The notes under the pieces: model-generated
Told to the model about the DNA's origin: nothing
The model's input: only the letters and a program-made list of their open reading frames with translations
Databases searched by the model: none
Assembly: GCF_963921235.1 (NCBI RefSeq)
Contig: NC_086097.1
Location: 66,528,001 to 66,592,000, forward strand
DNA from: Mobula hypostoma
Lineage: Eukaryota
Direction: 5' to 3'
Length of the DNA: 64,000 bases
Translations under genes and position numbers: made by a program
Shown: positions 36,650-64,000 of the stretch, in pieces
Position numbering within the stretch: position 1 is the stretch's first letter
Layout of the letters: the number at the start of each line of letters is the position of its first letter

Positions 36650-36755
36650 TAACTCATTTGGAGCTCAGTGTACTGATTGCAGAATGATTTGTACATAAAT
36701 GAGGACCTAACAGTTTATGAACACAATTACAACACAGGAAAACTCAAGCAGACAG
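36650..36755 (-). pseudogene. PKDREJ-like pseudogene: last TM and C-tail fragment
   Basis: VVIVFINC*VLIYVQIILQSVH*APNE resembles recalled PKDREJ MICVLINLFQAVIL..QPVYEEPSDE. Confidence 0.5.
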
Positions 36756-37755
36756 CCTCGATGCTGCCTTTTGCAGCTGGATCCTGGACTTCCTGTCGCA
36801 TCGCCAGCAGGCTCCCTCACCTCCAACCCTCTGACTCTCAATAGTACACAGCCCTGAGGGGCTCCTGTAAGTCCCCTCCTTTACTCCCTGTATACCCATG
36901 ACCGTAATGCCACCCACAGCTCTAATCTGCTAATTAAATTTGCCAATGACACTACATTGATTGGCCTTATCTCAAACAATAATGAGCTGGCCAACAGGGA
37001 AGAAGTCATCTCTCTGACACAGCGGTGTTAAGAAAGCAACCTCTCCCTCAATGTCGCAAAAACAAAGGAGCTGTTTGTGGATTACAGGAGGAATGGAGAT
37101 GGGCTAACTCCTATTGACGTCAATGGATCTGGGGCTGAGAGGCTAAACAGCTTTAAGTTCCTCGGCATCCACATCACCAAGGACCTCACTTGATCTGTAC
37201 GCACCAGCTATGTGCTGAAAAAAGCACAACAGCGCCTCTTTCACCTCAAACAGTTGAAGAAGTTTGGTATGGGCCCCCAAATCCTAAGAACTTTCTACAG
37301 GGGCACAATTGAGAGCATCTTGACTGGCTACATCACTGCCTGGTATGGGAACTGTACTTCCTTTAATCACAGAACTCTGCAGAAAGTGGCGCGGGCAGCC
37401 CAGCACATCTGTAGTTGTGAACTTCTCATGATTCAGGACGTTTACAAGGACAGGTGTGTAAAAAGGGCCCATAGGATCATTGAGGACCCAAGTCACCCCA
37501 ATCACCATCTATTACAGCTGCTACCATCCAGGGAGCAATACTGCAGCATAAAAGCCAGGACCAACAGGCTTCGGGACAGCTTCTTCAACCAGGCCGCCAG
37601 ATTGATTAATTCACGCTGATTTGAGTGTACTGTATATTACAGTGATTGTTCTATTATAAATTAATATGTTGCACATGGCACATTTAGATGGAGATGTAAC
37701 AAAGATTTTTACTCATGTATAGAAGGATGTAAGAAATAAAGTGAATTCAATTCAA
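36755..37755 (+). mobile_element. Rex1/Babar-like LINE 3' fragment
   Basis: ORF 37212-37619 KKAQQRLFHL..FYRGTIESILTG; (attca)n tail. Confidence 0.85.
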
Positions 37756-37844
37756 TGATGAAACTGACTAATAAGTATCAAGCAACACACATCAAAGTTG
37801 CTGGTGAACGCAGCAGGCCAGGCAGCATCTCTAGGAAGAGGTAC

Positions 37845-37880
37845 AGTCGACGTTTCAGGCAGAGACCCTTCATCAGGACT
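37845..37880 (-). ncRNA. Minimal hammerhead ribozyme, intact core
   Basis: AGTC-CTGATGA-AGGGTCTCTGCCT-GAAAC-GTC-GACT. Confidence 0.82.
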
Positions 37881-39088
37881 AACTGAAGGAAGAGTTAGTA
37901 AGAGATATTAAAGTGGGAGGGGGAGGGGGAGATCCAAAATGATAGAAGACAGGAGGGGGAGGGATGGAGCCGAGAGCTGGACAGTTGATTGGGAAAAGGG
38001 ATATGAGAGGATCATGGGACAGGAGGCCCAGGGAGAAGGAAAAGGGGGAGGGGGGGAAACCCAGAGGATGGGCAAGGGGTATAGTGAGAGGGACAGAGGG
38101 AGAAAAAGGAGAGTGAGAGAAAGAATGTGTGTATAAAAATAAATAACGGATGGGGTACGAGGGCGAGGTGGGGCATTAGCGGAAGTTAGAGAAGTCAATG
38201 TTCATGCCATCAGGTTGGAGGCTACCCAGACGGAATATAAGGTGTTGTTCCCCCAACCTGAGTGTGGCTTCATCTTTACAGTAGAGGAGGCCGTGGATAG
38301 ACATGTCAGAATGGGAATGGGATGTGGAATTGAAATGTGTGGCCACTGGGAGATCCTGCTTTCTCTGGTGGACAGAGCGTAGGTGTTCAGCAAAATGGTC
38401 TCCCAGTCTGCGTCGGGTCTCGCCAATATATAGAAGGCCACATTGGGAGCACCGGATGCAGTATATCACCTCAGCTGACTCACAGGTGAAGTGTCGCCTC
38501 ACCTGGAAGGACTGTCTAAGGCCCTGAATGGTGGTAAGGGAGGAAGTGTAAGGGCATGTGTAGCACTTGCAGAAAGCAGAGAGAGGGGAAGGGAAAGATG
38601 TGCTTAGTGGTGGGATCCCATTGGAGTGGCCACACATTTTAATTCCACATCCCATTTAGTGCGTCCGGTGCTGACATGTCTATCCACGGCCTCCTCTACT
38701 GTAAAGATGAAGCCACACTCAGGTTGGGGGAACAACACCTTATATTCCGTCTGGGTAGCCTCCAACTTGATGGCATGAACTTTGACTTCTCTAACTTCCG
38801 CTAATGACCCACCTCCCCCTTGTACCCCATCCGTTATTTATTTTTATACACACATTCTTTCTCTCACTCTTTTTCTCCTTCTGCCCTCTGACTATACCCC
38901 TTGTCCATCCAATGGGTTTCCCCCCTCCCCCTTTTCCTTCTCCCTGTCCCATGATCCTCTCGTATCCCCTTTGCCAATCACCTGTCCAGCTCTTGGCTCC
39001 ATCCCTCCCCCTCCTGTCTTCTCCTATCATTTTGGATCTCCCCCTCCCCCTCCCCCTCTCAAATCTCTTACTAACTCTTCCTTCAGTT

Positions 39089-39124
39089 AGTCCTGACGAA
39101 GGGTCTCGGCCTGAAACATCAACT
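39089..39124 (+). ncRNA. Hammerhead ribozyme, decayed
   Basis: CTGACGA..GAAAC-ATC-AACT with two CpG-type changes. Confidence 0.65.
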
Positions 39125-39239
39125 GTACCTCTTCCTAGAGATGCTGCCTGGCCTGCTGCGTTCACCAGCAACTTTGATGTGTGTTGCTTGAATTTCCAGC
39201 ATCTGCAGAATTCCTCTTGTTTGCGTTAATAAGTATCTA

Positions 39240-39900
39240 ACCTTCAAATCAATCCTTGGGAAAAAAGGATTAACAGATTCATTAAACAGAAAGGAGTGGA
39301 AAGCAGACTGAAGGAAGGTTATGTACGATCTGTAGACCTTCAGATTAATTCACAGTGAAATTAAAGTTCCATTCCGAAAAAACTATAAAAAGTCTATTAG
39401 GAATACATAGAGGAAATGCCAAGATTTAAGTTATCAATGAAAAGGCAAAGAAATTGGAGCATCATTGCCATGAAAGTGAGAGGTCAAAGGCAGGCTAGAT
39501 ATCGGAAACACATCTGCAGAGAGTGACTATAGGTGGCATTACTCAGGAAAAAAAAAATCTATCCCACCATCCAGATTAGGAAGCGGATTCAGGAGGCAAA
39601 TTTACAAACATAACATTAAAATAAAACTGGATACAGGAGTGTGAAGGAACCTCATAACCACTCAAATTATACCAAATGATTGTCTGAAAATATGAAATGT
39701 GGTATCAAAGATTATATCTCAAAATTTAGTGCTGTTCTGTTGCTGATGTGTGGAGGAGTTAATATTCTACAACTTGGAATTGCCCAAATCTTTGAGAAAC
39801 ACAAAGAGATACAAGTTAACTATACAGTATTTTCTATGTCACAGAAATTAAAAGCCAGGCATTCTGGATCTGAGGACTTATGAGAAACTGAACTTCATTT
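39240..39900 (-). pseudogene. PKDREJ-like pseudogene: polycystin channel-domain fragment
   Basis: FIVFSEWNFN (about 39360-39389) and FLQSAFHS resemble recalled PKDREJ LVFGQHEWNYSN and YCVSAFQN; many stops and frameshifts. Confidence 0.55.
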
Positions 39901-39976
39901 CAAATTTTAGAATGCAGCTTATTTCTTTTTGATGTGTTTCCACATTTTCCTAATATTTAGCAAACTTGCATAAATC

Positions 39977-41770
39977 ATATAAGACATAGGAGGAGAAGTA
40001 GGCCATAGAGTCTGCTCCACTATTCTATCTTAGCTGATTTATTATCCCTCTCGACCCCATTCTCCAGCCTTCCCTCTGTAACCTTTAATGCCCTTACTAA
40101 TCAGAATCTATCCACCTTCGCATTAAATATAGCCAATGACTTGGCATCCACTGCCAACTGTGGCAATGAATTCCACAGATTCACGACTCTCTAGCTAAAG
40201 AAATTCCTTTTCTCTGTTCTAAAGGAACGCCTTTCTGATCAGATGTTGTGCCCTCTGGCCCTATACTACCCCACTATATGAAATATCCTTATCACATCTA
40301 CTCTCTCTAAGCCTTTCAATATTTAAAAGGTTTCAATGAGATTCCCACCCCACCCCCACTTTATTCTTTGAAACTTCAGTAAGTACAAGGCCAGAGCCAT
40401 TAAACTTCCTTCAATGCTAGTACATCCTTACTTAGATAAGGGGCCTAAAATTACTCACATTGCTCTAAGTGTGGTTTGGCCAATGCCTTATTGTTACATG
40501 ACCATGGTTTCGTTTACTGTGAGTGTCACTTTGAAACGCCTGTATGAGGCGGGACTATGACATCAGTAAAACAAGCTGCGACAGACCGCTGGGATTTTTC
40601 AGGAGTAAGGAGAGAGAGGGCTGTCAAGACTTCAGCTCACTACGATATGGGTAAAGTCTGATACTTTCCCATGCCCAAAGGACTGGATTGAGTAACGGCA
40701 CACAGTGCACATTGGATGTGTGATTGTCACTTCGTATGATCCATATGTGAATGTTGTTGGTGTATCCTGTGGCGACCACGCTTGTTAACCCTTACTTGGA
40801 TTCAGGTGTGCTATGTGGTTACCACTTGTGCGAAGGGATATTCTGTGACTGTCACCTTGTGATGTTTCTACGTGGATTTCAGAACGACTTGATGGAAAAG
40901 ATCTTTGGCAACTGTTACTTTGTTTTCCTAGCGTGGAACCTGTGGAATTCTTCGTAATCGCTTTCTCTTTACATTTTAACCTGCATTTACAGATCTCTTC
41001 CGTCATTTATTCCGTGGATTACTGGACCTTTCTACTTTGCCATTTTAAGACTTTAAGACTGTTCCTAAGCTTGAAGTTTGGGAGCCACACACACACATAC
41101 AACACTGTTAACTTCTGGTTATTTTGTTTAATCATTTATATTTTAAGTAGATACTAATAAAGATAGTGATTTTAACATTAAAACCGGACTCAATGTGTGA
41201 TCTATTGCTGCTGGTACGAACACTTGTGAAGCCTCAGCATTACATCCTTGATATTATATTCTAGTCCTCTTGAAATAATTGCTAACATTGTATTTTCCCC
41301 CTTTATCACTGTCCCAAGCTGAAAATGAACCTTCAGGGAATCCTACACAAGGACTCCCAAATGCCTTTGCACCTCTAATTTCTGAATTTGCTCCCTGTTT
41401 AGAAAATAGTTTATGCTTTTATTCCTTCTACCAAAGTGCATGATCATACACTTCCCCACATTGTATTCCATCTGTCACTTCTTTGCTCATTCTCCTGATC
41501 TCTCTCATTCCTGATTTCTCAACACAATTGACCCCTTCACCTGTTTTTGCATCGCCTGCAAATTTGGCCACAAAGCCACCAATTCCATCATCCACATCGT
41601 CGACATATAATGTAAAAGGAAGCAGTCCCAACACTGACCCTTGTGGAACACTACTAGTAACTATCAGCCAAAATGAAAAGGCCCCCTTTACTCTCACACT
41701 TTGCCTCCTGCCAGTCAGCCAATCTTCTGTCCATGTTAGGACCTTTCCTGTAATACTCTGGGCTCTTATT
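39977..41770 (-). mobile_element. CR1 LINE fragment interrupted by a solo LTR
   Basis: [17 protein letters not shown] and CR1 3' end. Confidence 0.8.
40492..41222 (+). mobile_element. Solo LTR
   Basis: TGTTAC..GAACA termini; TSD cttat/cttgt; AATAAA near 41156. Confidence 0.7.
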
Positions 41771-42559
41771 TAACAACACAACTAATAGAAACAAGAGTAG
41801 TTTTTCTAAACCTCAGAGCCTACTCTACTGTTCATCAGAATCATGCCTAATCTTCTACCTCAGTATCATTTTTGTCAGCGTATTTCTTGCTTCCCTTAAC
41901 ATTCAGAAATCTATCAAGATGTGTTTTGAATAAACATAGTAACTAAGCTTATACGACCCTTCAGAGTAAAGAATTCCAAAGATTCACCTTTCTTTCTCTT
42001 CATCCCTGTCTTAAATGGTCTCCTGCGTATCCTTGTCCAGGAATCTACAGCCACTGAAAACATCCTTCCAGAGTCACCCTGTTCGCACCTTGCAAGTTTC
42101 TGGAAGTGCTCATGTTATGGGAAAATAATGATACTTGGAAAACCTTGGATCATATAGGAGCCTGAAGGCACACACTCTACTATTCAGAAACAGCTTCTTC
42201 TATTCTACCAGCAGTTTTCTGAATGGACACCGAATCCATAAACACTGACTCACTAATTTTTTTTTGCACTTCTTATTTAACTATTTAATACACACACATA
42301 TACTGTATGTACATATGCTTACTGTACTTCAGTTTTTATTATAATACATTGCTGCCGCATAATAACAAATTTCATGACACATGCAGTGATATTAAATTTA
42401 ATTCTGATTCGTTGGAAAATGTCAGGAGATGATGCTTTTGCTAATTTCTCTGAATTATTGATGGAGAGTTTTAATCATTTGAGTACTGCTTTAAAGCATT
42501 GCCAACACAATCTGCTTTTAACCAAGTGACATATTAAGGATTGTGAAAATCTGTCACTT

Positions 42560-43380
42560 CATCTAAGCAAATCATCAACAGTAACGTGTATCAACCTACT
42601 GCTACTTCTCTGTTGATTATTATTTTGGAATCTCCACACATCCAAAATGGCATAATCTTTAATCGCTACACAAATAACTGGTATAGCTCTTCCCCAACCT
42701 TATCCTGTAGAATGGAGTAGAGAGTCACAGTTTGAAGAAATATTGTGCAGCATTTTCTCACTAGCAAATTTCGCCTTATATGCTTTGAATAATATCTTTC
42801 ATTACAAAATATCTCTGGTTTCTTGCCAAGCAAAACCTATTCAGAGAATTTATCTCCACTCTTTATTTCCTCCTAATTTAATTTGATTTTTTTTCCTGCC
42901 AGTTCCAGACTGATTTTTGGTGTGGTACAGAAGAGGAAATTTTCCTAACTTTCACTGTTTCTTCCTCTAGCTTCACACACTCATACCATCTTGATCCTTT
43001 CTCCAGTGTAGGTATGAAGAACAACAGATCATACATTGAGCTTTATTGCATCATCTGGCCAATTACATTTACATTCCTACTCACATATCAATCATCAGTA
43101 TTGCAGTGCCAACATAAATTTCCATTGGCATTTTTTCCTTCAATGTTACCTGATGTATGGAAAATTTCAATGGAAATGTACAGCATCAGCAGTCCAGATC
43201 ATCGCCTTCTTTGTCTTGTCTATGGGTGTGCCCCTTTGCTATTATTCCCAATGAGCTTCATGTTGCTTATCAGCCTTAGTAGGGGCAAAATGGCATTTTT
43301 CTTCCCTTCTACAAAGTAATTTACACAAAAAAAATTCCAGAACTCTTAACAGACTCAATGATAATCTTATGGAACTACTG
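42560..43380 (-). pseudogene. PKDREJ-like pseudogene: TM and cytoplasmic-loop fragment
   Basis: IIIESV, EAHWE** and LKIMPFWMC occur in order, resembling recalled PKDREJ MIGIESV, SEHWEEY and RIVLPWWC. Confidence 0.55.
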
Positions 43381-45432
43381 AAAGAATCCAAACTGTCGTT
43401 TATCGTCGCAAACAACCTTCAGGAGGAACTCAGCTGGTCGAACCTCATCTGTGGGAGGAAAGGAACTGATGTTCCAGGTTGAAGGCAAAACATACTAGCC
43501 ATTTTTCCTTTCCGCCTCCCAGTCCTGATGCAGGGTTTCAGCCCAAAAGGTCAACCATTCTTTTTCTCCCACTGAATCTGCTCAATCCACTGAGTTCCTC
43601 TTGTGGATTAGTTGTTGCTCCAGATTCCAGCATCTTTGTAGCTGCCATACGACTACTATATAGACACCCACAGCATAGTAAATTTTAAATTGTCCCATTC
43701 AGGCCTAAATATTTAATCATTGTGAAGGCTTTCTTAATGTTGTGGGATAATGTCGTTCCTGACAAGGGGGATCATTCTGCTTGGTATGAGAGACTTGTGT
43801 CTGTGAAAATATCTCAGGTTCTGGGGCTTCCTCCTTTTAGGCAATTTCCATCAAGGACAAGTTCATGCCAGTGATGGTAAAAATGGGGGAACTGGAATTT
43901 CTGCTGCACATTCCAGCTATTTCGGGTTGACCGAAGACAGTGTAGGGTCTTTTCTGGTTTCTCTTTGGATCATCTCTACTATAATAGAGATACTTTAGAT
44001 TAGCATTAGAGGAGTGTCCTCTTTTGTAAATTTTTCAGATATTTCCTTTTCCAGGGGTAAATGGGATAATCATTCTCCTGGATTCAATCTTGTAATTGTG
44101 TCCTCCAGGAAACAGAGCCCCTATCTGGATTAGTACTGCTGCTGTTAGTGGAACAACCTTCTGTGGATTGAAAATGGACACTAGTGGTTGATGATCGGTA
44201 ATGACCGTGAACTCTCTCCCATACAAGTACTGATCGAAACGTTTTCCACCCCAAACCAGTCTCAAGGCCTCTCTGTCAACTTGTGTGTAATTTTTCTCTG
44301 CAGCGGTAAGGGAATGTGATGCAAAGACTATGGGGTGTTCAGTCCCATCACGCATAACATGTGACATGACTGCACCTTTCCATAAGGTGAGGCATCACCG
44401 GCAAGCTTCACCAGACAATGTGGATCATAATGTGTGAGTACAGTGTCTGATGTTACCATTTCCTTTATCGTTTTGAAAGATACCTCACATTGCTTTATCC
44501 ATTGCCATTTCTTGCTAACTATAGTAATGAGTTTGTTGGGGGGGGGGGGGGGAGTGCGGCATTATAACCAGATTTGGCAGGAACCTGTTATAGTAATTGA
44601 CAAATCCTAAAAAGCACCACAACTGTGACACATCCTTTGGGTTTGTGGCATCCACCACTGCTTGAATTTTCTCAGCACACTTGAGTATTCCTTGTGCGTC
44701 AATAGTCTGACCACAGTAAGTGATGCGTGCTTTAAAGAATTCACGTTTGCTACATTGTACTCTGAGCCCATAATCTTCTGATCTTTTTCACACCATCTTG
44801 ATATTTTGCAGATATTCCTTGTCATCCTTACTGGTAACAATGATCTCATCCAGGTAACGATGGCTAGCCTTACAACACTAGGTCCATAGCTTTCTGCCAG
44901 AGCGTGGGCACTGCTGCCACTCCAAAAATAATACTATTATAGTGATAGAGCCCTTTGTGAGTGTTAATGGTGGGAAACACTTTGGATTCTTCTTCCATCT
45001 CCAATTGTAGGTAGACCTCAACTAAGGCTACCTTGCTGAAGTGTTTTCCTCCAGAAAGGTTTGCAAGGGTGTCATCTATTCTTGGCAAGAGGGAATTGGG
45101 CTACTTTCAGTACTGGGTTGATGGTACCCTTAAGATCACCACATATCCTGACAGTCCTATTTTTCTAGACTACTGAGAGCATTCGCATTACCCATGGGCT
45201 CCATTTAACCTTGAAAAGAATTCCTTCAGCCTCCATGCGATCTGGATCACTGGCTACTTCATCATACATGGTATAGGGAACTGGATGGTTTTTCACAACT
45301 TAGGTGTGGCATTTTCAATTAACTCTATTTTACTCTTGATACGTTTGAGTTTTCCTATGCCACCCTTGAGCACTACTGTGTCACTGTAGCATCATCCAGT
45401 ACCTTTCTTAATTTGCTTTCAGTTGACTCTTA

Positions 45433-47045
<1,613 letters not shown>

Positions 47046-47244
47046 TATAGGGAATGTGACATACAAATGACGGATGGATCTCCAATCAAGTTGTAGTTGT
47101 CTCAGCCAATCACAACCCCAGAAAATGGACCTTCTTTCTTTGTACCACGTACAAGCCCAATGTATTTCACTAATGAATATCATTCCCACAGGAGTTATCT
47201 TTTCCCCAGTATAACTTCTCAGTTACATATCTTCAGGCTTCAGT

Positions 47245-49783
47245 TCATAGAATAGTACAGCACAGTACAGGCCCTTTGGCCCACAATGTTGTGCCGACCC
47301 TCAAACCCTGCCTCCCATATAAGCCCCCACCTTAGATTCCTCCATATACCTGTCCAGTAGTCTCTTAAACTTCACTAGTGTATCTGCCTCCACTACTGAC
47401 TCAGGCAGTGCATTCCACGCACCAACCACTTTCTGAGTAAAAAACCTTCCTCTAATATCCCCCTTGAACTTCCTACCCCTTACCTTAAAGCCATGTCCTC
47501 TTGTATTGAGCAGTGGTGCCCTGGGGAAGAGGTGCTGGCTATCCACTCTATCTATTCCTCTTATTATCTTGTACACCTCTATCATGTCTCCTCTCATCCT
47601 CCTTCTCTCCAAAGAGTAAAGCCCTAGCTCCATTAATCTCTGATCATAATGCACACTTTCTAAACCAGGCAGCATCCTGGTAAATCTCCTCTGTACCCTT
47701 TCCAATGCTTCCACATCCTTCCTATAGTGAGATGACCAGAACTGGACACAATACTCCAAGTGTGGCCTAACCAGAGTTTTATAGAGCTGCATCATTACAT
47801 CGCGACTCTTAAACTCTATCTTATGAAAGCTAACACCCCATAAGCTTTCTTAACTACCCTATCTACCTGTGAGGCAACTTTCAGGGATCTGTGGACATGT
47901 ACCCCGAGATCCCTCTGCTCCTCCACACTACCAAGTATCCTGCCATTTACTTTGTACTCTGCCTTGGAGTTTGTCCTTCCAAAGTGTACCACCTCACACT
48001 TCTCCAGGTTGAAATCCATGTGCCACTTCTCAGCCTACTTCTGCATCCTATCAATGTCTCTCTGCAATCTTTGACAATCCTCTACACTATCTACAACACC
48101 ACCAACCTTTGTGTCATCTGCAAACTTGCCAACCCACCCTTCTACCCCCACATCCAGGTTGTTAATAAAAATCACGAAAAGTAGAGGTCCCAGAACAGAT
48201 CCTTGTGGGACACCACTAGTCACAATCCTCCAATCTGAATGTACTCCCTGCACCACGACCCTCTGCCTTCTGCAGGCAAGCCAATTCTGAATCCACCTGG
48301 CCAAACTTCCCTGGATCCCATGCCTTCTAACTTTCTGAATAAGCCTACTGTGTGTAACCTTGTCAAATGCCTTACTAAAATCCATATAGATCACATCCAC
48401 TGCACTACCCTCATCTATATGCCTGGTCACCTCCTCAAAGAACTCTATCAGGCTTGTTAGACATGATCTGCCTTTCACAAAGCCATGCTGACTGTCCCCG
48501 ATCAGACCATGATTCTCTAAATGCCCAGAGATCCTATCTCTAAGAATCTTTTCCAACAGCTTTCCCACCACAGACGTAAGGCTCACTGGTCTATAATTAC
48601 CCGGACTATCCCTACTACCTTTTTTGAACAAGGGAACAACATTCGCCTCCCTCCAATCCTCCAGTACCATTCCTGTGGACAACGAGGACATAAAGATCCT
48701 AGCCAGAGGCTCAGCAATCTCTTCTCTCGTCTCATGGAGCAGCCTGGGGAATATTCCGTCAGGTCCCTGGGACATATTCCGTCAGGTCCCTGGGACTTAT
48801 CTGTCCTAATGTATTTTAACAACTCCAACACTCCTCTCCCTTAATATCAACATGCTCCGGAACATCAACCTCACTCATATTGTCCTCACCAACATCAAGT
48901 TCCCTCTCATTGGTGAATACCGAAGAAAAGTATTCATTGAGGACCTTGCTCACTTCCACAGCCTCCAGGCACATCTTCCCACCTTTATCTCTAATCGGTC
49001 CTACCTTCACTCCTGTCATCCTTTTTTTCTTCACATAATTGAAGAATGCCTTGGGGTTTTCCTTTACCCTAGTCGCCAAGGCCTTCTCATGCCCCCTTCT
49101 TGCTCTTCTCAGCCCCTTCTTAAGCTCCTTTCTTGCTTCCCTATATTCCTCAATAGACCCATCTGATCCTTGCTTCCTAAACCTCATGTATGCTGCCTTC
49201 TTCCTCCTGACCAGATTTTCCACCTCACTTGTCACCCATGGTTCCTTCACCCTACCATTCTTTATCTTCTTCACCAGGACAAATTTATCCCTTACATCCC
49301 ACAAGAGATCTCTAAACATCGACCACATGTCCATAGTACATTTCCCTGCAAAAACATCATCCCAATTCACACCCGCAAGTTCTAGCCTTATAGCCACATA
49401 ATTTGCCTTTCCCCAATTAAAAATTTTCCTGTCCTCTTTGATTCTATCCTTTTCCATGATAATTATAAAGGCCAGGGAGCGGTGGTCACTGTTCCCCAGA
49501 TGCTCACCCACTGAGAGATCTGTGACCTGACCCAGTTCATTACCTAGTACTAGTTCTAGTATAGCATTCCCCCTGGTCGGCCTGTCCACGTACTGTGACA
49601 GGAATCCATCCTGGACACACTTAACAAATTCTGCCCCATCTAAACCCTTGGAACTAATCAGGTGCCAATCAATATTAGGGAAGTTAAAGTCACCCCTGAT
49701 AACAACCCTGTTATTTTTGCACCTTTCCAAAATCTGCCTCCCAATCTGCTCCTCTGTATCTCTGCTGCTACCAGGGGGCATCA
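47245..49783 (-). mobile_element. CR1 LINE (partial endonuclease and RT)
   Basis: ORFs 48816-49784 (GDFNFPNIDW, SDH), 48035-48775 and 47301-47795; TSD ttcagt; same subfamily as 25772-26897. Confidence 0.92.
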
Positions 49784-50641
49784 TTCAGTGTCTTTGAAAT
49801 GCCATTCAAGCTCATTTTTTGGAATGACTGAAACTGCCAAGCCAATATTTAATTCAATTTTAGTTAATTTGCCATTCATTTCTGGTGTAAGCCATATTGC
49901 TTGTCTATTGTTAGTTTTCACGTTGTAAATCTTTAGGCTGCGCAGTCCTGTGAAACTCTCATCACGATCAGATTTTTCATCAACAGCGAAAAGATTAGTG
50001 CTCTTTTTGAAACTGCAACTTGACTTTCTATCTTTTTCTCCTCTCTGTGTAGTCCATTGATTTTTGTCTGCCTGACATGCTCCTTGCATGTGTCCTACTT
50101 TGTTGCTTTTTTTTTGCAAGTTTGACCTTTAAACCTGCATCGGTCCAGTGCATGTGAGCCCCTGCCACAGTGGTAACACAATTTTTTTCAGCCAGGACAG
50201 TTTAGATGTTGCAATCTTGTTCATGCGCACTTTCATTCTTAACTGCAACTTAATTGTGTCTTTGTCTGTTGTTTCCATTGCTCAGCGATTTCAACTGCTC
50301 TTTTAAATGTAAGTTGTGCTTCAGTTAGGAGCCATTTTTGAAAGCTTTCTTGTAAGATTCCACAAACTAAACCATCTCTCATTAAGTCCATTGTTGAACT
50401 GAGAATGGTCAATCTCTTCAATTTAGCCATATACATTGAAAAGGACTCTCCTTCCTTTCAATTCCACTTATGAAACCTAAAGTGTCTCCAGTCAACAATG
50501 TTCTAAATGTTCCTGCATTACTTTCACAATATCAGCAAAGCTCATCTTGTCTTCTTTGTTTAGAGCAATTAAACTTCTAAGCAAACTGTTTGCCTTTAAA
50601 TCCAATGCACTCCGTAAAACCGGTATTTGCTTCTCCTTTAA

Positions 50642-51182
50642 AAACACAAACACCAGGAAATCTGCAGATGCTGGAATTTCAACCAACACACATCAAAGTT
50701 GCTGGTGAACGCAGCAGGCCAGGCAGCATCTCTAGGAAGGGGTACAGTTGACGTTTTGGGCCGAGACCCTTCGTCAGGACTAACTGAAAGAAGAGCTAGT
50801 AAGAGATTTGAAAGTGGGAGGGGGAGGGGGAGATCTGAAATGATAGGAGAAGACAGGAGGGGGAGGGATGGAGCCAAGGGCTGGACAGGTGATTGGCAAA
50901 GGGGATATGAGAGGATCATGGGACAGGAGGCCTAGGGAGAAAGAAATGGGGAGGGGGGTGAACCCAGAGGATGGGCAAGGGGTATAGTGAGAGGGACAGA
51001 GGGAGAAAAAGGAGAGGGAGGAAAAAAAAGAATGTGTGTATATAAACAAATAATGGATGGGGTACGAGGGGGAGGTGGGGCATTAGCGGAAGTTTGAGAA
51101 GTCAATGTTCATGCCATCAGGTTGGAGGGCTCCTCTACTGTAAAGATGAAACCACACTCAGGTTGGAGGAACAACACCTTAT
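50642..51182 (-). mobile_element. PLE 3' fragment with a short inverted segment (51129-51182)
   Basis: Same family as 4104-5214; the hammerhead at 50746-50781 has GAAA mutated to AAAA. Confidence 0.85.
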
Positions 51183-52964
51183 CCTCTGCTTTCTGCCACA
51201 GCAACAACTTTTAAGCCAATGTACAATCACCCTTGCGTCCCATGAACTTCAATTTCTTTCATGTGGATTTTGTCTGATAATAAAACTCACATACCTCCTT
51301 GATCTTCTTCATTCAGAAAAATTCAGTTAAGCTAAACATGGCTCTCCATTAATGATCCTGTGCTGAATGGCCTTTATTAATCTGTTCCACTCTAAATGCT
51401 AATTGATGCCTTTGGAATTTTTCAAGACAAGGGTTCTGTTGTCACACAATCTATCTCTTTATCCCTTTAGTAATCTTTCAGCATTCTGGCACCAACCCTG
51501 GTTTCAAGCATTTCCTACTATGCTGATTCTGCTGATTCATTCGGAGGATAATTTCACCATTGCTGGCCACTCTTGGAGTTAGAGATCTAAGCCTTGACCA
51601 GCAATGAAATGGTATCTGAGGACAGTAATTCTGATACTCATTTTTCATTCATTCGACTACAGCATGTAAGAAAATTGTGGTGTACAGACCAATGGCAAAT
51701 ATACTTCTCATGGCTTAAATTTTATTGTGAAAGCTGGCATGAACATAAAGCTATGTTCTCTGTTTCTATATCAAACATGCTTTTAGTTAAGTTGCCTAAA
51801 GAAAATAAATCTCAAACATCATGGATATCCAATTTATGGAAGCAAAATGGACCAACTGAGATATGGCTTTGATCACCTGCCTTTGATAATCCTTCCCAAT
51901 GTTCTTTCACATGTTCTGAAGTCAGCAAAATTTATTCTCTGTAATTTTATTGTGCAATTTTCTTGAGTAGTTGAATGAAGCTAATGGGAATGAACATCAA
52001 AATACATAACAGACCATTGATCTTTTATCACATATTTAACATCTCTACCAAATTTGAAAATTCAAAAAACAAGCCTGCCCTCCCAACCTGCTCATCTCCT
52101 CTCCCAGTTTGCAACCTCTATTCCATGTCTACTGTCCACTCCTATCAGATTCCATCTGGACTTTGCCTCATCCACGAATCACCTCCCAGCCTCTCATATC
52201 ATTGCCACTTCAATCCCTCCCCCACCCACTTATCTTTCTCCCTAACAAAGATTAACTTATTATCCACAAGCTCAAGCTCCTCTTCTCTCCCACTCTTTTA
52301 TTCTGGCTTCTGTCCGCTTTCTTTTCCAATCCTATTAAAAAGGTCTCAGTCCAACATATCATCAGTTCATTTCCCTCCATAGACACTGCCTGACCTGCTG
52401 AGTTCCTCCAGCGATTTGTGTGTGTTGATCTAAATTCAGCCTTATTCCATTCTCTATTCACGTATTAAGCTGCTACCATATTCCACTAAATTTCTACGAA
52501 AAGACTAATTGATTAAAATTTATGATATGCCAGGTGCCAATATATGATAAAGAATTAAATAACATCTTGCTTGCATGTAGTTTCATGATTACTTCAGGAA
52601 AATGAATAGACATAAACAGCTGTTTCTTTTCTGCCTTGGTTTCTGAACTTGTACAAGAAAACTAATTTACCAGACCATTACATTCAACAGTCTAGGGATG
52701 CTAACCACGTATACACTTAAAATTTTAAACCACCAAAAAGAAACATGAACTGAGGATAGTAATTCCAGCTTAAGTTATTTAATACATTCATTCAACAAGT
52801 AAAAAAAAATTGCAATGGACAAATGGGAAATACATTTGCTTTTTGTTAAATTACTGAAAGAAAATAATCTCAAAAATCATAGTTACATTAGAAATTATTA
52901 ATATTTATTATTTTACAAGATTGAACAAAATCAATTGACCTAAACAAATGAATGGGTTGCTACT

Positions 52965-53290
52965 TCACAGAAGTTGGCAAAACTAAGTATAGTAAGCGTC
53001 TGACGATTTGGAATATAACTGGATAAATCTGGCTGCTCGTGTCTTATGGTTCCAAGGAGAAATGCTTGCATTCAGAACAGAGGCAAGTCCTGGACTTAAG
53101 TTATGTGCTGTAATTCCAGGACACACAGTGACAGGTGACATTGTATATGCCAAAATATTCCGTGTCTGGAATCCAGTGGTAAATTTCAGTCTTTCTGAGC
53201 ATTGCACAGGGAATATATAACTCAGCTACTACCTCAGGACTGATATGGTGTAGGCTCCAGCACCCTGCTGATTTAAATAGACATCCTGGG
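52965..53290 (-). pseudogene. PKDREJ-like pseudogene: GAIN-region fragment
   Basis: CLFK..ISPEVVAELYIP..TRAARFI..LTILSFANFC versus recalled VLFT..ITPTALVATFLVP..LQAPRFV..VRISIFSVQC. Confidence 0.6.
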
Positions 53291-53610
53291 TGTGTGGATT
53301 AAGAGGCAAAGTGGGAGATAAATTACTTTGTAAATTATTTCATTATAGTTTAACTTTTAAGTTTTTATTTACATTCATTACAATTTTATTTTTTAATGAT
53401 TTTGTATTTTTTTCATTTATTTTTATTTCAATAACTTTTCAAGTACTTGGACATTTAAAATCAGTTTCAAGACAAGACAAAAGAACTTAATGTCAAAGCT
53501 TAAAAGTTCAAAGTTTAAAGCAGGGTCTTCATAATACATACCCTGGAGAAAAGCTAGCATTTGGACTTTGCCAGCCGACTTATGGGCACAGAGCAGCAAC
53601 GAAGCTGGCC

Positions 53611-54476
53611 ACACACATCAAAGTTGCTGGTGAACGCAGCAGGCCAGGCAGCATCTCTAGGAAGAGGTACGTTTCAGGCCGAGACCCTTCGTCAGGACTA
53701 ACTGAAAGAAGAGCTAGTAAGAGATTTGAAAGTGGGAGGGGGAGGGGGAGATCCAAAATGATAGGAGAAGACAGGAGGGGGAGGGATGGAGCCAAGAGCT
53801 GGACAGGTGATTGGCAAAAGGGATATGAGAGGACCATAGGACAGGGGGCCTAGGGAGAAAGAAAAGGGAGAGGGGTGGAAAACCCAGAGGATGGGCAAGG
53901 GGTGTAGTGAGAGGGACAGAGGGAGAGAAAGGAGGGAGAGAAAAAGAACGTGTGTATATAAATAAATAACGGATGGGGCACGAGGGGGAGGTGGGGCATT
54001 AGCGGAAGTTTGAGAAGTCAATGTTCATGCCATCAGGTTGGAGGCTACCCAGATGGAATATAAGGTGTTGTTCCTCCAACCTGAGTGTGGCTTCATCTTT
54101 ACAGTAGAGGAGGCCATGGATAGACATACCAGAATGGGAATGGGATGTGGAATTAAAATGTGTGGCCACTGGTAGATCCTGCTTACTCTGGCAGACAGAG
54201 CGTAGGTGTTCAGCAAAACAATCTTCCAGTCTGCGTCGGGTCTCGCCAATATATATAGAAGGCCGCACCGGGAGCACCGGATGCAGTATATCACCCCAGC
54301 CGACTCACAGGTGAAGTGTCGCCTCACCTGGAAAGACTGTCTGGGGCCCTGAATGGTGGTGAGGGAGGAAGTGTAAGGGCATGTGTAGCACTTGTTCCGC
54401 TTACAAGGATAAGTGCCTGGAGAGAGATCGGTGGGGAGGGATGGGGGGGGGGGGTGGATGAATGGACAAGGGAGTC
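53611..54476 (-). mobile_element. Penelope-like element 3' fragment (GIY-YIG)
   Basis: VIYCIRCSRCG..YIGETRRRL; hammerhead at about 53669-53699 lacks its 3' stem I strand. Confidence 0.88.
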
Positions 54477-54656
54477 CAACAAAGTTGACCTTCTACCTCT
54501 GGCCCAGGTGAATATGAGAATACAGGGACCAGGGGTGGCAATTAGTGGCAGTGGGCTGGGTTCAGCACATTCTCTCTAATCAGGTCTTCTTCTGTAGCTT
54601 GATGCTCTTGATGAGCTGAAAATTATCCACACGTTTACAACCCTAGATCAAAATAC

Positions 54657-54962
54657 CTGCCGACAATATATAGTATTTCTTGGAATGAATCAACATTTGA
54701 AGCAGGTGGTCAGGCTAACATGATGAGTTATAAAACCATTCTTGCTTCACTCTGAACTGTGATAGCTGTGGTGAAAGTTTCTCTCCGTATATTGGATAAG
54801 GGAAAAGGTGGAAAGAATTGAGCAGTCTAATTTGTTCACAGTGAACATGAATAAATGCAAAACTATTTTTTGGATCCATAGCTGAAAAGTACGCAGAAAA
54901 AAAATCATATAATTGTAGCTACAGTTGCAAAAGGAAGATAAAATTTTAGACTTGAGGACAAC
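54657..54962 (-). pseudogene. PKDREJ-like pseudogene exon (GAIN region)
   Basis: tttttcctgttgcag acceptor; LFPYPIYGEKLSPQLSQFRV (about 54748-54807) aligns ungapped to recalled PKDREJ LFPWLNDQENTSVEVSGFRM. Confidence 0.65.
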
Positions 54963-56451
54963 CTGCAACAGGAAAAATACTTAAAGCAACCACAATAGTC
55001 AGTCCTTTTTTATTGATTTTATTTGGGACTAATTTATGTCAATATATTACTTTTAATAGTGTTCTAATTCTAATCCAGTTCTTGCAGCAATTCTGTACGA
55101 TCTCTGCTGTCCAAAATGAAGCCACTTCGTAAATTTTACACCTCAAAGATTATAATAAGTGTCTTGGGTGTATTTCTGTTTATTGTGTAAATCCTGAAAT
55201 GATCTGAGTTGGAGGATCAGCCATGATCATAATAAATGGCGGTGCAGGCTCGGAGGGCCGAATGGCCTACTCCAGCACCTAGTTTTCTATGTCTCTATTT
55301 TCTATGATATTTACTTCAAGATGTTGTATTAATCCAATATACACTTGCCTTTCATCTCATTTGAAAGCTAGGTGAAGCCAGGAGAAATAATTTAGTCTTC
55401 ATTTAGAGACTCTAAATGAAGCCACAACGGCCACAGTATGCGAGACAATAAAATATTTAGTATCAACAGCATAAAACATTCAGTGGGACACCACTGAGAT
55501 GTATTTTGAGACCTTTTTTTGAAAACACATGCACGGGAAAGATTGTGTAATATATAAAATGGGTGACAGCTATTTGGCTGGTTGTTACGTACCTCACTTG
55601 ATTTTATATCTCCATTAGAATAAGTAAAAATTTCCTATCCAATGATTGCAAAGGATTGAGATGTTATGCCAGGGTTTTATTCCAGTTAAAAAAAAAATAC
55701 AGCATTTCCGAGTACAACAGACGGCAGATGCTGGAACCTGGAGCAACAACCAGCTGCTGGAAGAACTCAGCAGATCAGCCTGCATCAGTGGAGGGAAATG
55801 GACAATCAACCATTTCAAATCAAGACCCTTCATCTTGACTTCAGGTATCTTTCTGATTTCACAAGTCAAAAATGACCCCTTAAAATAAATGTTATCAACA
55901 TTAAAAGGGTACTAACTGTTTCACCCATTTTTCCAATTTATTATGACAACATCCATAACTTGAAAGTGGTAGAAGTCAACAACACCTGATGAAGTTGTAC
56001 TCCTCAAATGCAAGCAAAACAATGGCACATTTCTCTGGAAGAGAAAATAATTATGATTCGGGAGTGCAATCTGTAATTTCTAAAACTGACACAAAAGGTG
56101 GCAGTATTGCCAACAGTGAACAGAATATTAACAGATTGCATCACAATATCAAAAAGCTGATGGAAGCGACCAACACGAGGCTGAAAACATTTAATGCAAT
56201 TTGATGGGTTAAAAGAGAAGAGCTAATAGAATGCTTTTTTAAAAAGGTGGTTGAGAGAGACCTGGAGGTATTCGTGCACGAAGCATTGACAGTAGCAGGG
56301 TAGGTAGAGAAAGTGGTTAATAAGGTATACATTATTATATGGGGCTTTTTCAGCTGGGATAGCACATAAAAAGCAGGGAAGTTATAGTGACACTTTATGA
56401 TACATAGACTGGCCTTAAGTGCAATATTGTGTTTATTCTGGCCACATCATT

Positions 56452-57120
56452 TCAGAATCAGGTTTAATATCACTGATATATGTTGTAAAATTTGTTTACA
56501 TAAAACTACTGTAAGTTACAATAAGTCTATAAAGTGCAAAAAGAGAGCAAACTAGTGAGATAATATTCATGGACCAGAGGGGAAGAAGCACTGAGTGTGC
56601 ATCACCACGTCCTCGCCGCTGTAGCAACAAGGAAAGGGCATGCCCTGAAAGGTGAAGATCCTTAATGATGGATGCTGCCTAATTGAGACACCACATTTTG
56701 ACCATGACCTTGATGGTGGGGAAACTGGTGCCCATGGTGGAACTGGCTGGGTCTACAACCCTCTATTGCTCTATTCAGTCCAGTGCACTGGAGCTCCATA
56801 TCAGGTGGTGGTGCAGCCAGTTAGAATGCTCTCCACAGTACACTTGTAGGAATTTGCTAGAGTCTTTGGTGACATACCAAAACTCCTCAAACTCCTAATG
56901 AAGTGTCTTCATGATTGCATATCTGAGGACAGATCCTCTGAGATGATGACGCCCAGGAACTTGAAGCTGTTCACCTCTTCTACTGCTGACCACTCGATGA
57001 GGACTGGTGGGTGGATGTGTGTGTGTGTGTGTGCGTGTGCGTGCGTTCGTTCTTCCGACTTTCCCTTCTTGAAGTCGAAAATCAATTCCTTGGTCTTACT
57101 GATGTTGAGGGCAAGGTTGT
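56452..57120 (-). mobile_element. Rex1/Babar-like LINE fragment
   Basis: Similar to 11120-11965; contains a (GT)n run at 57016-57045. Confidence 0.7.
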
Positions 57121-58014: not shown

Positions 58015-58649
58015 TATATCCAATCACAGAGAAACATTTGCAAGCCAATGGAGTAGGGGCTGCTGGTTGAACTCACAAGTTACTCTGGTAAACATGAGCA
58101 AAGGAGACTCCTTCTTTGGGAGTTTTGGTGCACAAAGAAGCTGCTACTTTCATTATATTACAAACACCATATCTCAAACCTGTGTATCTAGCATTTTTGT
58201 AATCTCCCAAAGGGAAATTAATTGCCCCCTCAAATATTTCTGATGACATAGGGCTAGTCAGTTAGTTTATGGAAAGCCATGTTATACAAGAGCATATTTT
58301 GTATGCTAGCCCTAAAAGGGGAAAGGCACAAATGCAAATGTGTGCTTTGACTGCTTTCAATGGGAAAGATTCTTGTACCACCAGTGATAGTTTCAAGCGT
58401 TTAGTTACGAATTCAGTTAATGCCTCACCATTAGATATTTCACAAGCAATGGTTAGCCTGGAAGCAAGCATGGCACAGCCTCTGTGAAAAGCCAACTTCT
58501 ACAGGCAACAAACAAATGCTGGCCTTTGAAGACCGCAGGAACACACAGCTGCACCTTGAATCATTCTGTGGAATCTTTTATGTGCACTGACAACTGGTCT
58601 GCTGCTTAATGTTTAACTTAATTTGGAAGATTCCACCTTTTTTTACTCC

Positions 58650-59975
58650 AGTGGTTGGTAAATTGATGCAAAATATCCTGAGAGGCAGGATTTATGAACA
58701 CTTGGAGAGGCATAATATGATTAGGAAGTCAGCATGGCTTTGTCAAAGGCAGGTCGTGCCTTACAAGCTGATTGGATTTTTTGAGGATGTTACTAAACAC
58801 ATTAATGAAGGTAGAGCAGTAGATGATGTGTATATGGATTTCAGCAAGGCATTTGATAAAGTACCCCATGCAAGGCTTATTGAGAAAGTATGGAGGCATG
58901 GGATTCAAGGGGACCTTGCGTTGTGGATCCAGAATTGGCTTGTTCACAGAAGGCAAAGAGTGGCTGAGTACGGGTCATATTCTGCATGGAGGTTAGTGAC
59001 CAGTGGTGTGCCTCAGGAATCTGTTCTGGAACCCCTCCTGTTCGTGATTTTTATAAATGACCTGGATGAGGAAGTGGAGGGATGGGTTAGTAAATTTGCT
59101 GATGACACAAAGGTTGGGGGTTTTGTGGATAGTGTGGAGGGCTGTCAGAGGTTACAGCGGGACATCGATAGGATGCAAAACTGGGTTGAAAGGTGGCAGA
59201 TGGAGTTCAACCCAGATAAGTGTGAGGTGGTTCATTTTGGTAGGTCAAATATGATGGCAGAATATAGTATTAATGGCAAGACTCTTGGTAGTGTGGAGGA
59301 TCAAACGGATCTAGGGGGTCTGAGTCCATAGGAATCTCAAAGCTGCTGCTGTGGTTAAGAAGACATATAGTGCATTGGCTTTCATCAACCATAGGATTGA
59401 GTTTAACAGCCAAGAGGTAATGTTATAGCTATATAGGACCCTGGACAAACCCCACCTGGAGTACGGTGCTCAATTCTGGTCGCCTCACTACAGGAAAGAT
59501 GTAGAAACTATAGAAAGGGTACAGAAGAGATTTACAAAAATGTTGCCTGGATTGGAGAGCATGCCTTATGAGAATAGGTTGAGTGAAATCGGCCTTTTCT
59601 CCTTGGAGCAGCAGAGGATGAGAGGTGACCTGATAGAGGTGTATAAAATGATGAGAGGCATTGATCATGTGGATAGTCAGAGGCTTTTTCCCAGGGCTGA
59701 AATGGCAAACACAAGAGGGCACAGTTTTAAGGTGTTTGAAAGTAGGTGAAGAGGAGATGTCAGGGGTAAGTTTGTTTATTTGTTTGTTTTTACACACAGA
59801 GAGTGGTGAGTGCGTGGAATAGGCTGCCAACAATGGTCATGGAGGCAGATACGATAGGGTCTTTTAAGAGACTCCTGGAGCTTAGAAAAACAGAGGGCTA
59901 TGGGTAACCCTATGTGATTTCTAAAGTAAGTACATGTTTGGTACAGCTTTGTGGGCCAAAGGGCCTGTATTGTGC
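58650..59975 (+). mobile_element. CR1 LINE 3' fragment
   Basis: [21 protein letters not shown] and KFADDTK. Confidence 0.88.
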
Positions 59976-60413
59976 ATTCTGATATGCTGGTCCATGGCCT
60001 CCTCTTGTGCCAAGATGAGGCCACCCTCAGAGTGGAGGAGCAACACCTCATATTCTGTCTGGGTAGCCTTGATTTCTCTTTCTGGTGAAAAAATACCTTC
60101 CCCCTCCTCTCTTCCTCTATTCCTCATTTTGTCCTCTTACCTCTTCTCACCTCCCCCTGGGTCCCCTCCTCCTTTCCTTTTTCCCATGGTTTACTCTCCT
60201 GTCCTATCAGATTCCTTCCTCAACTGCCCTATACTTCTACCCACCTGGCTTCACCTATCACTTTTGAGCTGCTCTCCATCCCCTCCCCTGACCTTTTTGA
60301 TCTGGTGTCTCTCCCCTTCCTTTCTAGTCCTGAAGAAAGGTCTCGGCCCAAAATGTCGACTGCCTATTCGTGCTGACTGACCTGCTGAGTTCCTCCAGCA
60401 TTTTTTGTGTGTG
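59976..60413 (+). mobile_element. Older PLE 3' fragment with degenerate hammerhead (60326-60361)
   Basis: Homologous to the PLE 3' region. Confidence 0.75.
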
Positions 60414-60599
60414 ACTTTCTGCATTTCCTCAGGACATGCTGATGAGTGTGTACAAACGTTTGTACATTATGAGCTGATGCAAAGCACAAATCTACAACCT
60501 TTTGACTTAGCAGTAAAAATGTTATTCTGGCATATAACATAATCGGAATTTAAGACAGACTGCAATGTTTTATAGTCAGCTTCCACTGCACCCATTGCA

Positions 60600-61425
60600 T
60601 AGCTGACCCTAAAATTTCATGAAGCATTTAGATGGTAAATCAATGTCATATATTTAGTAATGAGACGTACTGGATGAATAATTAATTCATGTCTCTGCAA
60701 CTTTTTTGTCAGTTAAATAGAAACACATGTTGATTTTGTTTACTTGATGTAAACATGTTTTGTGGAAGTGGATTTGAATTGTGCATTGATTACTTGAAGG
60801 AAATGTAGGCCCATTATGAATGGAATGTCAAATAAGAAGTTAAACAACACTGATATAGTGAATGCATCATATACTTATTGTATTACAATATATCTTTGCA
60901 ATTGAATAATTTAAAATTCTAAAATTATATACATTATAGCATTAACTAGAAATAGTTAATAAAGCCTTCTAAATTGTCGACAAAAAGCATTAGCTCTGTG
61001 ATATAAGATTCTTGTAAAGAGCATCTTTTAATAATGGCAATTCTTATATTTGATGCTTGCATTCTAATACATGAAATTTGTACTGCTAACACTAAGGAAA
61101 TTAAAATAATTGATTTGACGCATTGATACCATGAGAACAAATCAGGCATCCTGGGGAACATATGCCAAAAAATTTGGGGAATCTGGAAAATATAGGCATT
61201 ACAGAATGAAAGTGGATTTCAAACAGTGGCTCACTGGTGTCTATTTAAAGATGACACCATTTAAAACCGCAGAGTGGTTCCAGCATCATCTTCAAGGTTT
61301 TATTGCTCACTGTTGGTAGCCTGTTCTAAAGCCAAGGACACTAATAGTGCTACCTGCAGTATTTTAATGGTCAGCTGATGTCATTCATTGTCCTCTGTCA
61401 TGATGACCTGTAGCTAACCTGGGAT
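60600..61425 (-). pseudogene. PKDREJ-like pseudogene exon (REJ C-terminal part)
   Basis: HQLTIKI..EDDAGTTLRF..PVSH..LHQVNKINM..LTDK versus recalled HVPLTYKI..ENTLGTILYL..PVG..LVEIGQVVM..LTQK. Confidence 0.55.
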
Positions 61426-61798
61426 ATTGTTCAAGGCATAAATTAAAATAAATAAAAAATGGAAATTAATATCAAATCTATCAATGAGTAAAAGAGAAAA
61501 AAGCTGGGGAGGTTTGCAGTCTTCTGCTGCATAAAGGGGTAGCAGTACCCGTGATTTGGGGGGGGGGGTCAGACTGTACTCCCTTGTTCCACTATTTAAG
61601 TTTCGTCTGCATTTTAGCACAAATTAGCATACAGAACTGCAGAATGCACATAGTTAGCAACCCCCGTGGCACAAAAATCTGCCCTCAATACTACTGGCTG
61701 TGTAGTGTTGTGAACTAGAAAAATGATAAACAAACAAGGATTCCTTTTTTTTTTGCCCCAGAGCTCCTTCCCACTATTTTCACAAGATGGAAACTTAC

Positions 61799-62614
61799 TG
61801 CAGCTTTTGGCACCGGTTGCTTAATATAAATTTCAATTTCACTCGGGCCCTGATGATGTTGTGGGAATTCAACATAAGTACATAAAAATGACCCTTTTGG
61901 CTTTGTACAGATGTACTTGCCATCTGCTCAGTTGATTGTGGTGCCTGCAGATCAGGTAAGTAACCTGTGTGATTTTAACTGTATCTGCCCAGAGTTGGGC
62001 AGATACAGTTGAAAATAACTTCTGAGGTTATTTTCACTGATTCAAAGCAATAAATGTTAGCTTCTGGGTTTCTTAAAGGCTAGAAGCGCTGGAAAGAATA
62101 CTTTTTATATCCAATGTACAGAATTAAGTTTTCCCTGAAGTAGTACTCAAAGGGCAACTGCTGTTTATAGCAGATTTTTTGCATCAGAGTTGTGCGCACC
62201 TCATGTTCAAATTGGATCCTAGAGCAATCACAGTGCCATTGAAACATGGGAGCAACACCATCCAATTTATGTTCAGACATATCTATGAGAAAGCTGTTTA
62301 ACAATGAATTACAAGTGGAAACAGCAACAGGAATAGAATGGTTTCTACCATGCTCATGAACAACATTAATCACATCAGTATAGAGACTAATATCAGGATT
62401 AATTTCTGTCTTGACTTCAAAACTCGCCAGGAAGTAAAGAGTAACATCAGCTAGGTGAAATAGCAAATTCTTATCTCCTTCCATGTAGATGAATAACTGG
62501 AATGATACAAAAGCAGATTAGCCTAGGGAACTCTGCTTGTCTCGTGTTCTGTATACAAACATGTAACATTGAAATTCTACTGAAGAGGTCCTAGCAATTA
62601 GCTTCAAGGTGGAC
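61799..62614 (-). pseudogene. PKDREJ-like pseudogene exon (REJ domain)
   Basis: Pyrimidine-rich acceptor and CA|gtaagt donor. VKTEINPD..FQWHC..KICYKQQ..YYFR..SFQRF*PLRNPEANIYCFE versus recalled ITTGNPK..FFWYC..KEVCHPEQ..YFFR..SDKRVHVLQGPKAIAHITCIE. In-frame stops present. Confidence 0.7.
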
Positions 62615-63900: not shown

Positions 63901-64000
63901 TTTAGGGCTGCTCCAAGCTTCTCTTCAAATGCTGCATTGAAGTGCAAGATTACTAATATTTCATTAGGTAGTTTTGGACAAAACCTGCTGGTGGAAGAAA

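Follow-up and report, generated by a model that had tools for sequence, protein, structure and literature searches.

On the minus strand of a 64,000-nt stretch of the Mobula hypostoma genome (NC_086097.1:66,528,001-66,592,000, forward strand; hereafter the window), positions 36650-62614 probably hold the remains of an old, single-exon PKDREJ-like polycystin-1 pseudogene, split by transposons and presumably dead before the five ray species compared here diverged. The locus is at most a pseudogene and its protein is no longer made: no intact frame with 11 TM helices was found, and the longest open frame outside the transposons, at 62083-62517 in the first island, comprises 145 codons and carries indels in relatives.

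The original prediction described non-repeat islands, and self-BLAST of the window confirmed that they are unique at the positions given. The stretches lacking a second copy are 60414-64000, 55299-56620, 54395-55202, 52428-53607, 51183-52160, 42411-45430 (occupied above ~43.7 kb by a Gypsy element), 39228-39978 and 36232-37775. We delineated seven islands on the minus strand, running from 62640 down to 39228 and totalling 8,256 bases. Island 1 (60414-62640), a likely REJ-region remnant, is single-copy and unconstrained in four relatives and stop-poor on the minus strand only; island 2 (55299-56620), left without a domain assignment, is weakly stop-poor on the same strand (z -2.2) and has no Pfam polycystin match. 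Island 3 (54395-55202) is a likely GAIN-region remnant, judging solely from the by-eye resemblance of its peptides at 55107-54750 to PKDREJ, and island 4 (52428-53607) likely contains the end of GAIN (53244) and, from the motif spacing, a GPS-like W-x17-C-x-C (52672). Island 6 (42411-43400) is a possible TM/loop remnant, recognised by eye only, and island 7 (39228-39978), which is not stop-poor on the minus strand (z +1.8), a possible channel-domain remnant. Island 5 (51183-52160), absent from the pieces initially listed, is a candidate for the first TM helix and the start of PLAT, given its rank with an ungapped PLAT-core profile. A piece on the same strand at 36650-36760, claimed as the last TM helix, is doubtful and was rejected as a secure assignment: it offers a hydrophobic translation only, much like a second stretch found at 39306, and scores a profile z of -0.2.

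The large gaps are indeed transposons, as predicted, according to Pfam domains, gag/pol frames and self-BLAST. The 7.8 kb between islands 5 and 6 is transposon nearly throughout, the nested block at 43700-51182 consisting of a Gypsy-type LTR element, with gag/pol frames spanning 50.6 to 44.9 kb, and an inserted CR1-like LINE (47246-49784), together with two repeats, one of Penelope type at 50636-51182 and the other at 45431-47047 (Pfam RT_RNaseH, RVT_1 and Exo_endo_phos_2). Another CR1-like LINE piece with short repeats lies on the plus strand at 58643-60413 (RVT_1, E 2e-19; self-BLAST), and a Penelope-type repeat pair occupies 37769-39237 on the minus strand (GIY-YIG, E 0.0019). The latter is bordered on both sides by an 11-base direct repeat, a target-site duplication with copies at 37769 and 39227, which is the one clear case among 20 boundary pairs tried. 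The Pfam transposon domains map to 48038-48781 and 58591-59328 (RVT_1), 44038-44394 (RT RNase H) and 38179-38655 (GIY-YIG); the subfamily names are presumptive.

The islands lie next to the end of a TPR gene, which we take to be TTC6. Its last two exons, at 31138-31363 and 33058-33185 on the plus strand (TPR_1/TPR_2, E ~1e-14), have AG/GT borders and close with a TAA stop, 3.5 kb short of the claimed 3' end of the remnant. With the remnant taken in minus-strand orientation, the two genes converge as proposed. The statement that human PKDREJ does not neighbour TTC6 fits the literature, elephant shark pkdrej being, according to the PMC5318412 supplement, syntenic with the mammalian gene; any copy beside TTC6 would therefore be a paralogue. 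A literature search returned no published account of PKDREJ beside TTC6 or of 'PKDREJ-like' duplicates, and among the matches listed, the catshark paper (PMC11979771) was the only one that mentions pkdrej.

Decay is best documented in island 1, for which the sequence of Mobula hypostoma was compared with those of four relatives over 60400-63900. The segment 60517-63207 is single-copy at at least 80% identity in all four, and a young transposon origin was rejected on this ground. The REJ-like island is 2-9% diverged in the four relatives, with many indels, and is no better conserved than its own upstream flank; it is dead, unconstrained DNA that mutates freely in all five species. For this island, the predicted decay is thus upheld by the free accumulation of substitutions and indels, but the lineage-specific loss proposed along with it finds no support, since the island is unconstrained in all five species and no intact orthologue was seen.

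Stops are depleted in island 1 on the minus strand (z -3.3) and not on the plus strand (z +0.8); pooled over the pieces originally predicted, z is -2.3 on the minus strand (3 of 300 shuffles as low) versus -0.5 on the plus strand. Once the 145-codon frame is left out, the pooled signal vanishes (z -0.9, 53 of 300 shuffles), control DNA reaches z -1.9, and an equally long open frame is present on the plus strand at 42882-43316. The stop-content test reveals no sign of coding in islands 4, 5 or 7. The length of the 145-codon frame, against 84 codons expected (z +3.1), would suit a functional exon of some gene so far overlooked, but this is very improbable, and we reject it on the indels: in one relative, deletions of 2 and 13 bases fall within the frame, eight of the nine substitutions in or just before it change a residue (among the differences listed, which cover 40 of 443 places), and the frame diverges to the same extent as its flank. 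AlphaFold modelled the frame on its own with a pLDDT of 31.

Searches for polycystin homology came back blank. None of 18 long frames matched any Pfam family, and none of 105 short windows matched REJ (PF02010), GPS (PF01825), PLAT (PF01477), Polycystin_dom (PF20519) or PKD_channel (PF08016) (13 matched unrelated families weakly, best E 0.014), so that the Pfam check, which is of low power, yielded no polycystin match. Searches of the PDB with seven frames gave no polycystin and unrelated matches only (E 0.56 or worse); for island 6, one of three frames was searched, with no matches. No matches were obtained by phmmer with 61699-62640 against 1.84 billion proteins or against representatives, and no candidate scored in two word-index protein searches with the 145-codon frame (94 and 45 candidates); since the index yielded as few as eight candidates when given a conserved PLAT motif, its negative outcomes carry little weight. 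The ESM Atlas gave a best score of 0.86 with unrelated clusters, recognition lying below threshold. BLASTP against the REJ region of the invertebrate polycystin L007 reached E 9.1, tblastn of 12 invertebrate proteins against the window E 0.18 at best, and whole-gene frameshift alignment scored 26.2, compared to 26.5 +/- 2.9 in 30 shuffles. A frameshift-aware profile built from invertebrate polycystins, without vertebrate PKDREJ, gave z -1.3 to +1.2 in the seven predicted cells of 196 (REJ, -0.5; 54395-56620, +0.1; 42411-43400, -0.6; 39228-39978, -1.3); under simulated decay, this profile goes blind at 15-30%, from 15% for REJ and at 30% for the polycystin and channel domains. A vertebrate PKDREJ was sought by a PLAT motif scan, in which none of 46 loci was recognisable as such and which besides these gave one bacterial contig and no viral one, among the 26 PDB relatives of L007, which included none, and by a bridge search, which gave two proteins among eight candidates, one of them from coral. 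The islands are real, as is the decay of island 1, and no tool, all being weak tests, found a match to PKDREJ or another polycystin beyond chance. The collinearity of the pieces, put forward as an argument against chance, cannot serve as evidence on its own as long as none of them has a significant score.

Motif spacings and resemblance are among the points in favour of a polycystin. The spacing F-x-W-x-C-x19-C at 62244, inside the 145-codon frame, recurs in the REJ domain of L007, and W-x17-C-x-C at 52672 is also the spacing in the GPS region of three invertebrate polycystins (L007, L012 and P0001). The latter pattern occurs three times in the six frames of the window, 52672 being the only occurrence on the minus strand, where it lacks the G-C seen after W in the three polycystins and ranks 1363 of 127,792 by score. 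Each spacing is thus found once on the minus strand, in REJ-then-GPS order, for patterns picked after the window had been seen. With the ungapped PLAT-core profile, 51311 ranks 7 of 127,798 with a negative score and is not upheld by the gapped scan or the PDB; of four short motif profiles, three put the predicted sites no higher than chance would, and the eight best tiles of each of seven gapped profiles did not include a predicted one. By eye, several series of short, plausibly spaced matches, at 62.5-61.9, 61.1-60.55, 55.1-54.75 and 53.24 kb, resemble PKDREJ, and some TM-like and pore-like stretches below 44 kb fit it as well. The same motif could be fitted by eye to two different places, which indicates that chance matches come easily. 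The likely PKDREJ identity comes from by-eye resemblance of this kind only.

It is conceivable, although less likely, that the islands are ordinary intergenic DNA with unrecognisably old repeats, the PKDREJ appearance being pattern-reading on AT-rich DNA whose translations are hydrophobic and Cys-rich. Every homology search was blank, island 1 diverges like its flank, stop-poverty hangs on one frame and islands 4, 5 and 7 are devoid of coding trace, all as this explanation would have it; however, no vertebrate PKDREJ was among the queries, power was lost at 15-30% decay, the word-index blanks tell little, and motif order and island lengths suit a one-exon gene. Less probable still is that the real remnant is confined to the 5' part (REJ-GAIN, 62.6-52.4 kb), representing a truncated PKDREJ or another polycystin-1 family gene, with the assignments below 44 kb due to chance. 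The depletion of stops and the two motif spacings all lie above 52 kb, the island at 40.0-39.2 kb is not stop-poor on the minus strand, and the channel domain scores z -1.3 there, despite being the domain to which the profile is most sensitive (31 bits even at 20% decay); yet deep decay would mask the 3' pieces too, and some TM-like and pore-like stretches fit PKDREJ by eye.

Under the favoured reading, that of a complete but dead PKDREJ-like gene, a one-exon paralogue of ~6.5 kb would once have occupied the site, lost its function and grown to 26 kb as LINE, Penelope-type and Gypsy elements inserted into it. The proposed REJ-GAIN/GPS-TM-PLAT-TM-channel order on one strand is that of PKDREJ from human, mouse, gar, elephant shark and catshark, the summed length of the islands would suit a single-exon gene of 6.3-6.5 kb, and the by-eye resemblance of the peptides is a further likeness; unlike PKDREJ, the islands have no frame longer than 145 codons, are cut by transposons, lie beside TTC6 and not at the mammalian-syntenic site where elephant shark pkdrej is found, and gave no homology with any tool. 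According to the PMC5318412 supplement, gar and elephant shark pkdrej genes span 6.3-6.5 kb, so that 8,256 bases is compatible with such a span plus older insertions, old introns being another possible component. By analogy with mammalian PKDREJ, which pairs with PKD2-type channels (PMC13218627), the ancestor would have been an 11-helix polycystin of the sperm surface with partners of this type.

Three papers offer comparisons. Squamates have three tandem PKDREJ copies, one of which is missing in gekkotans (PMC7038749); there, too, extra copies come and go between lineages, but the squamate duplicates are tandem, with long coding exons in use, whereas the ray locus would be dispersed and dead. 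The pkd1l3 locus, which is partial in teleosts and gar (PMC5318412), likewise shows a polycystin-1 family gene in decay in fish, yet it is another paralogue, located beside dhodh and still detectable by BLAST at 29-55% identity. Cartilaginous fish also have additional polycystin-1 family duplicates, pkd1L4.1 and pkd1L4.2 (PMC11979771); these differ in being expressed and in grouping near the PKD1L2/L3 clades, although a link between them and the ray locus is conceivable.

With PKDREJ duplications and polycystin-1 family losses already known from squamates and teleosts, a dead copy by itself would be of little surprise to a specialist. A bolder and rather doubtful proposal is that, beside TTC6, cartilaginous fish have an undescribed further sperm receptor gene of PKDREJ type, which sharks, skates or chimaeras would retain intact and an ancestor of these rays would have lost; if so, it would lie among reproductive genes (TTC6) and its disappearance would be a fertilisation-gene loss that can be dated. 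The history of the polycystin-1 family in jawed vertebrates is called poorly known in PMC11979771, and the ray locus, if real, would add to it an unannotated PKDREJ paralogue and a gene loss that could be dated across rays.

The window is AT-rich vertebrate DNA with abundant LINE, Penelope-type and LTR repeats. Its forward strand carries the last two exons (31138-31363 and 33058-33185) of a TPR gene that we take to be TTC6, with AG/GT borders, an in-frame junction and a TAA end; the former exon matches TPR_1 and TPR_2 in Pfam (E ~1e-14). The last intron of this TTC6-like gene contains a GC-rich 53-base tandem repeat (32317-32702). Upstream of these exons lie an intact CR1-like reverse transcriptase frame of 542 codons (16394-18019, plus strand), apparently a young insertion, and a GC-rich stretch (14177-15443) with frames of 161 and 143 codons and a weak Pfam match to L_protein_N (E 0.0013); the 161-codon frame resembles the terminal restriction-type endonuclease of site-specific non-LTR elements.

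The original prediction was a decayed PKDREJ-like gene scattered over unique islands, and self-BLAST indeed revealed no second copy of these islands within the window. The seven islands, from 62640 down to 39228, total 8,256 bases, and self-BLAST, Pfam and frame reading place transposons in the gaps: a CR1-like piece (58.6-59.9 kb), Penelope-type repeats (53.6-54.4 and 50.6-51.2 kb), a decayed minus-strand Gypsy-type LTR retrotransposon with gag zinc knuckle, RT and RNase H frames (about 43700-50640) into which a CR1-like LINE and a further repeat are nested, and two tandem Penelope-type copies (37769-39237) within one 11-base target-site duplication. According to the supplement of PMC5318412, pkdrej spans 6.3 kb in gar and 6.5 kb in elephant shark. 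The island total fits a one-exon gene with old insertions, a fit that any intergenic region could match.

Homology searches did not recover the proposed polycystin domains. None of 18 long frames matched any Pfam family, and among 105 windows of 116-150 residues no match was to a polycystin family. Seven window frames matched none of PKD1, PKD1L3, PKD2 and PKD2L1 in the PDB, where the 26 relatives of the reference protein L007 include no PKDREJ. Nor were there matches for 61699-62640 among 1.84 billion proteins (phmmer) or for the 145-codon frame of island 1 (62083-62517) in word-index protein searches, and the ESM Atlas returned unrelated clusters only, all below 0.9. A metagenome scan with a PLAT motif, run to obtain references, yielded 46 loci, including two full-length polycystin-1-like proteins of ~3,400 residues, L007 (108-10391, plus) and L012 (1464-11891, minus), encoded in single uninterrupted frames with the domain order WSC/PKD-REJ-PLAT-channel; P0001 and P0002 were added by querying a protein index with a conserved PLAT stretch. 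With a 14-sequence profile built from these references, the joined islands scored 26.2 in a frameshift-aware aligner versus 26.5 +/- 2.9 for shuffles, and among the 196 cells of a domain-by-island table, the seven predicted pairs gave z of -1.3 to +1.2, with unpredicted cells reaching +6.9. When the L012 family was withheld from the profile, 15% simulated neutral decay sufficed to bring the L012 REJ domain close to background; for the PLAT and channel domains of L012 this happened at 30%. PKDREJ, described as fast-evolving in PMC13218627 and PMC7038749, lies, we infer, further from these references than L012 does. Furthermore, the PLAT stretch drew only eight candidates from the protein index, which suggests that the index covers vertebrates poorly or that its word search is insensitive. 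For these reasons, the blank searches lower the PKDREJ claim and do not refute it.

Several candidate traces of PKDREJ were seen. Island 1 (60414-62640) required fewer stops and frameshifts than shuffles on the minus strand (z -3.3; plus strand, +0.8); pooled over the originally predicted coordinates, the minus-strand z was -2.3, or -0.9 without one long frame, and control DNA reached -1.9. The pattern F-x-W-x-C-x19-C of the L007 REJ domain occurs twice in the six frames, once on the minus strand (62244), and W-x17-C-x-C, which L007, L012 and P0001 share in their GPS region, three times, once on the minus strand (52672); both were picked after viewing the window, so that no P value applies to them. 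Among 127,798 positions scored with a PLAT-core profile, 51311 came seventh, a rank that a gapped scan did not uphold, and three other short motif profiles gave nothing at their predicted sites in the window. By eye, short peptides at 62.5-61.9, 61.1-60.55, 55.1-54.75 and 53.24 kb resemble PKDREJ in order and rough spacing; the 54.76 and 53.24 kb pieces, presumably near-neighbours in the protein, are separated largely by one transposon. The resemblance is weaker for the 3' pieces, and a stretch at 39306 rivals 36.7 kb as the last transmembrane helix. This likeness is only a lead, being evidence of the same type as the original prediction and gathered in knowledge of it.

Constraint was compared across 60400-63900, which among the islands covers island 1. 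Contigs of four other species span 28-30 of its 30 bins, and outside a short repeat at ~63.4 kb their depth is that of single-copy DNA; at 63426-63475 a 50-base element has many copies, with unrelated flanks, in all four genomes. In one comparison (X11), the claimed REJ region carries 98 substitutions in 1,291 bases and 100 in 1,372 (97 and 72 gap letters), and the upstream flank 21 over 248 bases and 47 over 522; for another (X10), substitutions amount to 6.7-9.3% inside versus 5.9-7.8% upstream, and a third (X5) shows 66 substitutions and 63 gap letters over 2,975 bases. Deletions of 2 and 13 bases interrupt the 145-codon frame in X11, and one of the nine substitutions listed in or just before it is silent; this detail covers 40 of the 443 sites with a substitution and 12 of the 104 with an indel. 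Island 1 is unconstrained DNA. Because it accumulates substitutions and indels as the flank does, a working gene appears to be kept there in none of the five species.

A living exon, for which the 145-codon frame could speak, is accordingly highly improbable. It is improbable that the 5' half alone is a real remnant. That the islands are intergenic DNA resembling PKDREJ by chance is a less probable alternative, in line with the blank searches and the pooled z without the long frame. Most likely, the islands are a dead single-exon PKDREJ paralogue, which would have lost function before the five compared species split and would then have been expanded by insertions. No intact copy came to light, so the originally proposed lineage-specific loss is hypothetical.

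Such a minus-strand gene at 36.6-62.6 kb would face the TTC6-like gene convergently; PMC10453820 links TTC6 to the sperm annulus. In elephant shark, pkdrej keeps synteny with its mammalian counterpart (PMC5318412), and catshark has a pkdrej orthologue (PMC11979771), so any copy at this locus would be a paralogue. The family product is described in PMC13218627 as a sperm-head protein associated with PKD2-type channels, and knockout mice as fertile with reduced fertility. At best, then, the islands are a candidate pseudogene of a known, duplication-prone family.
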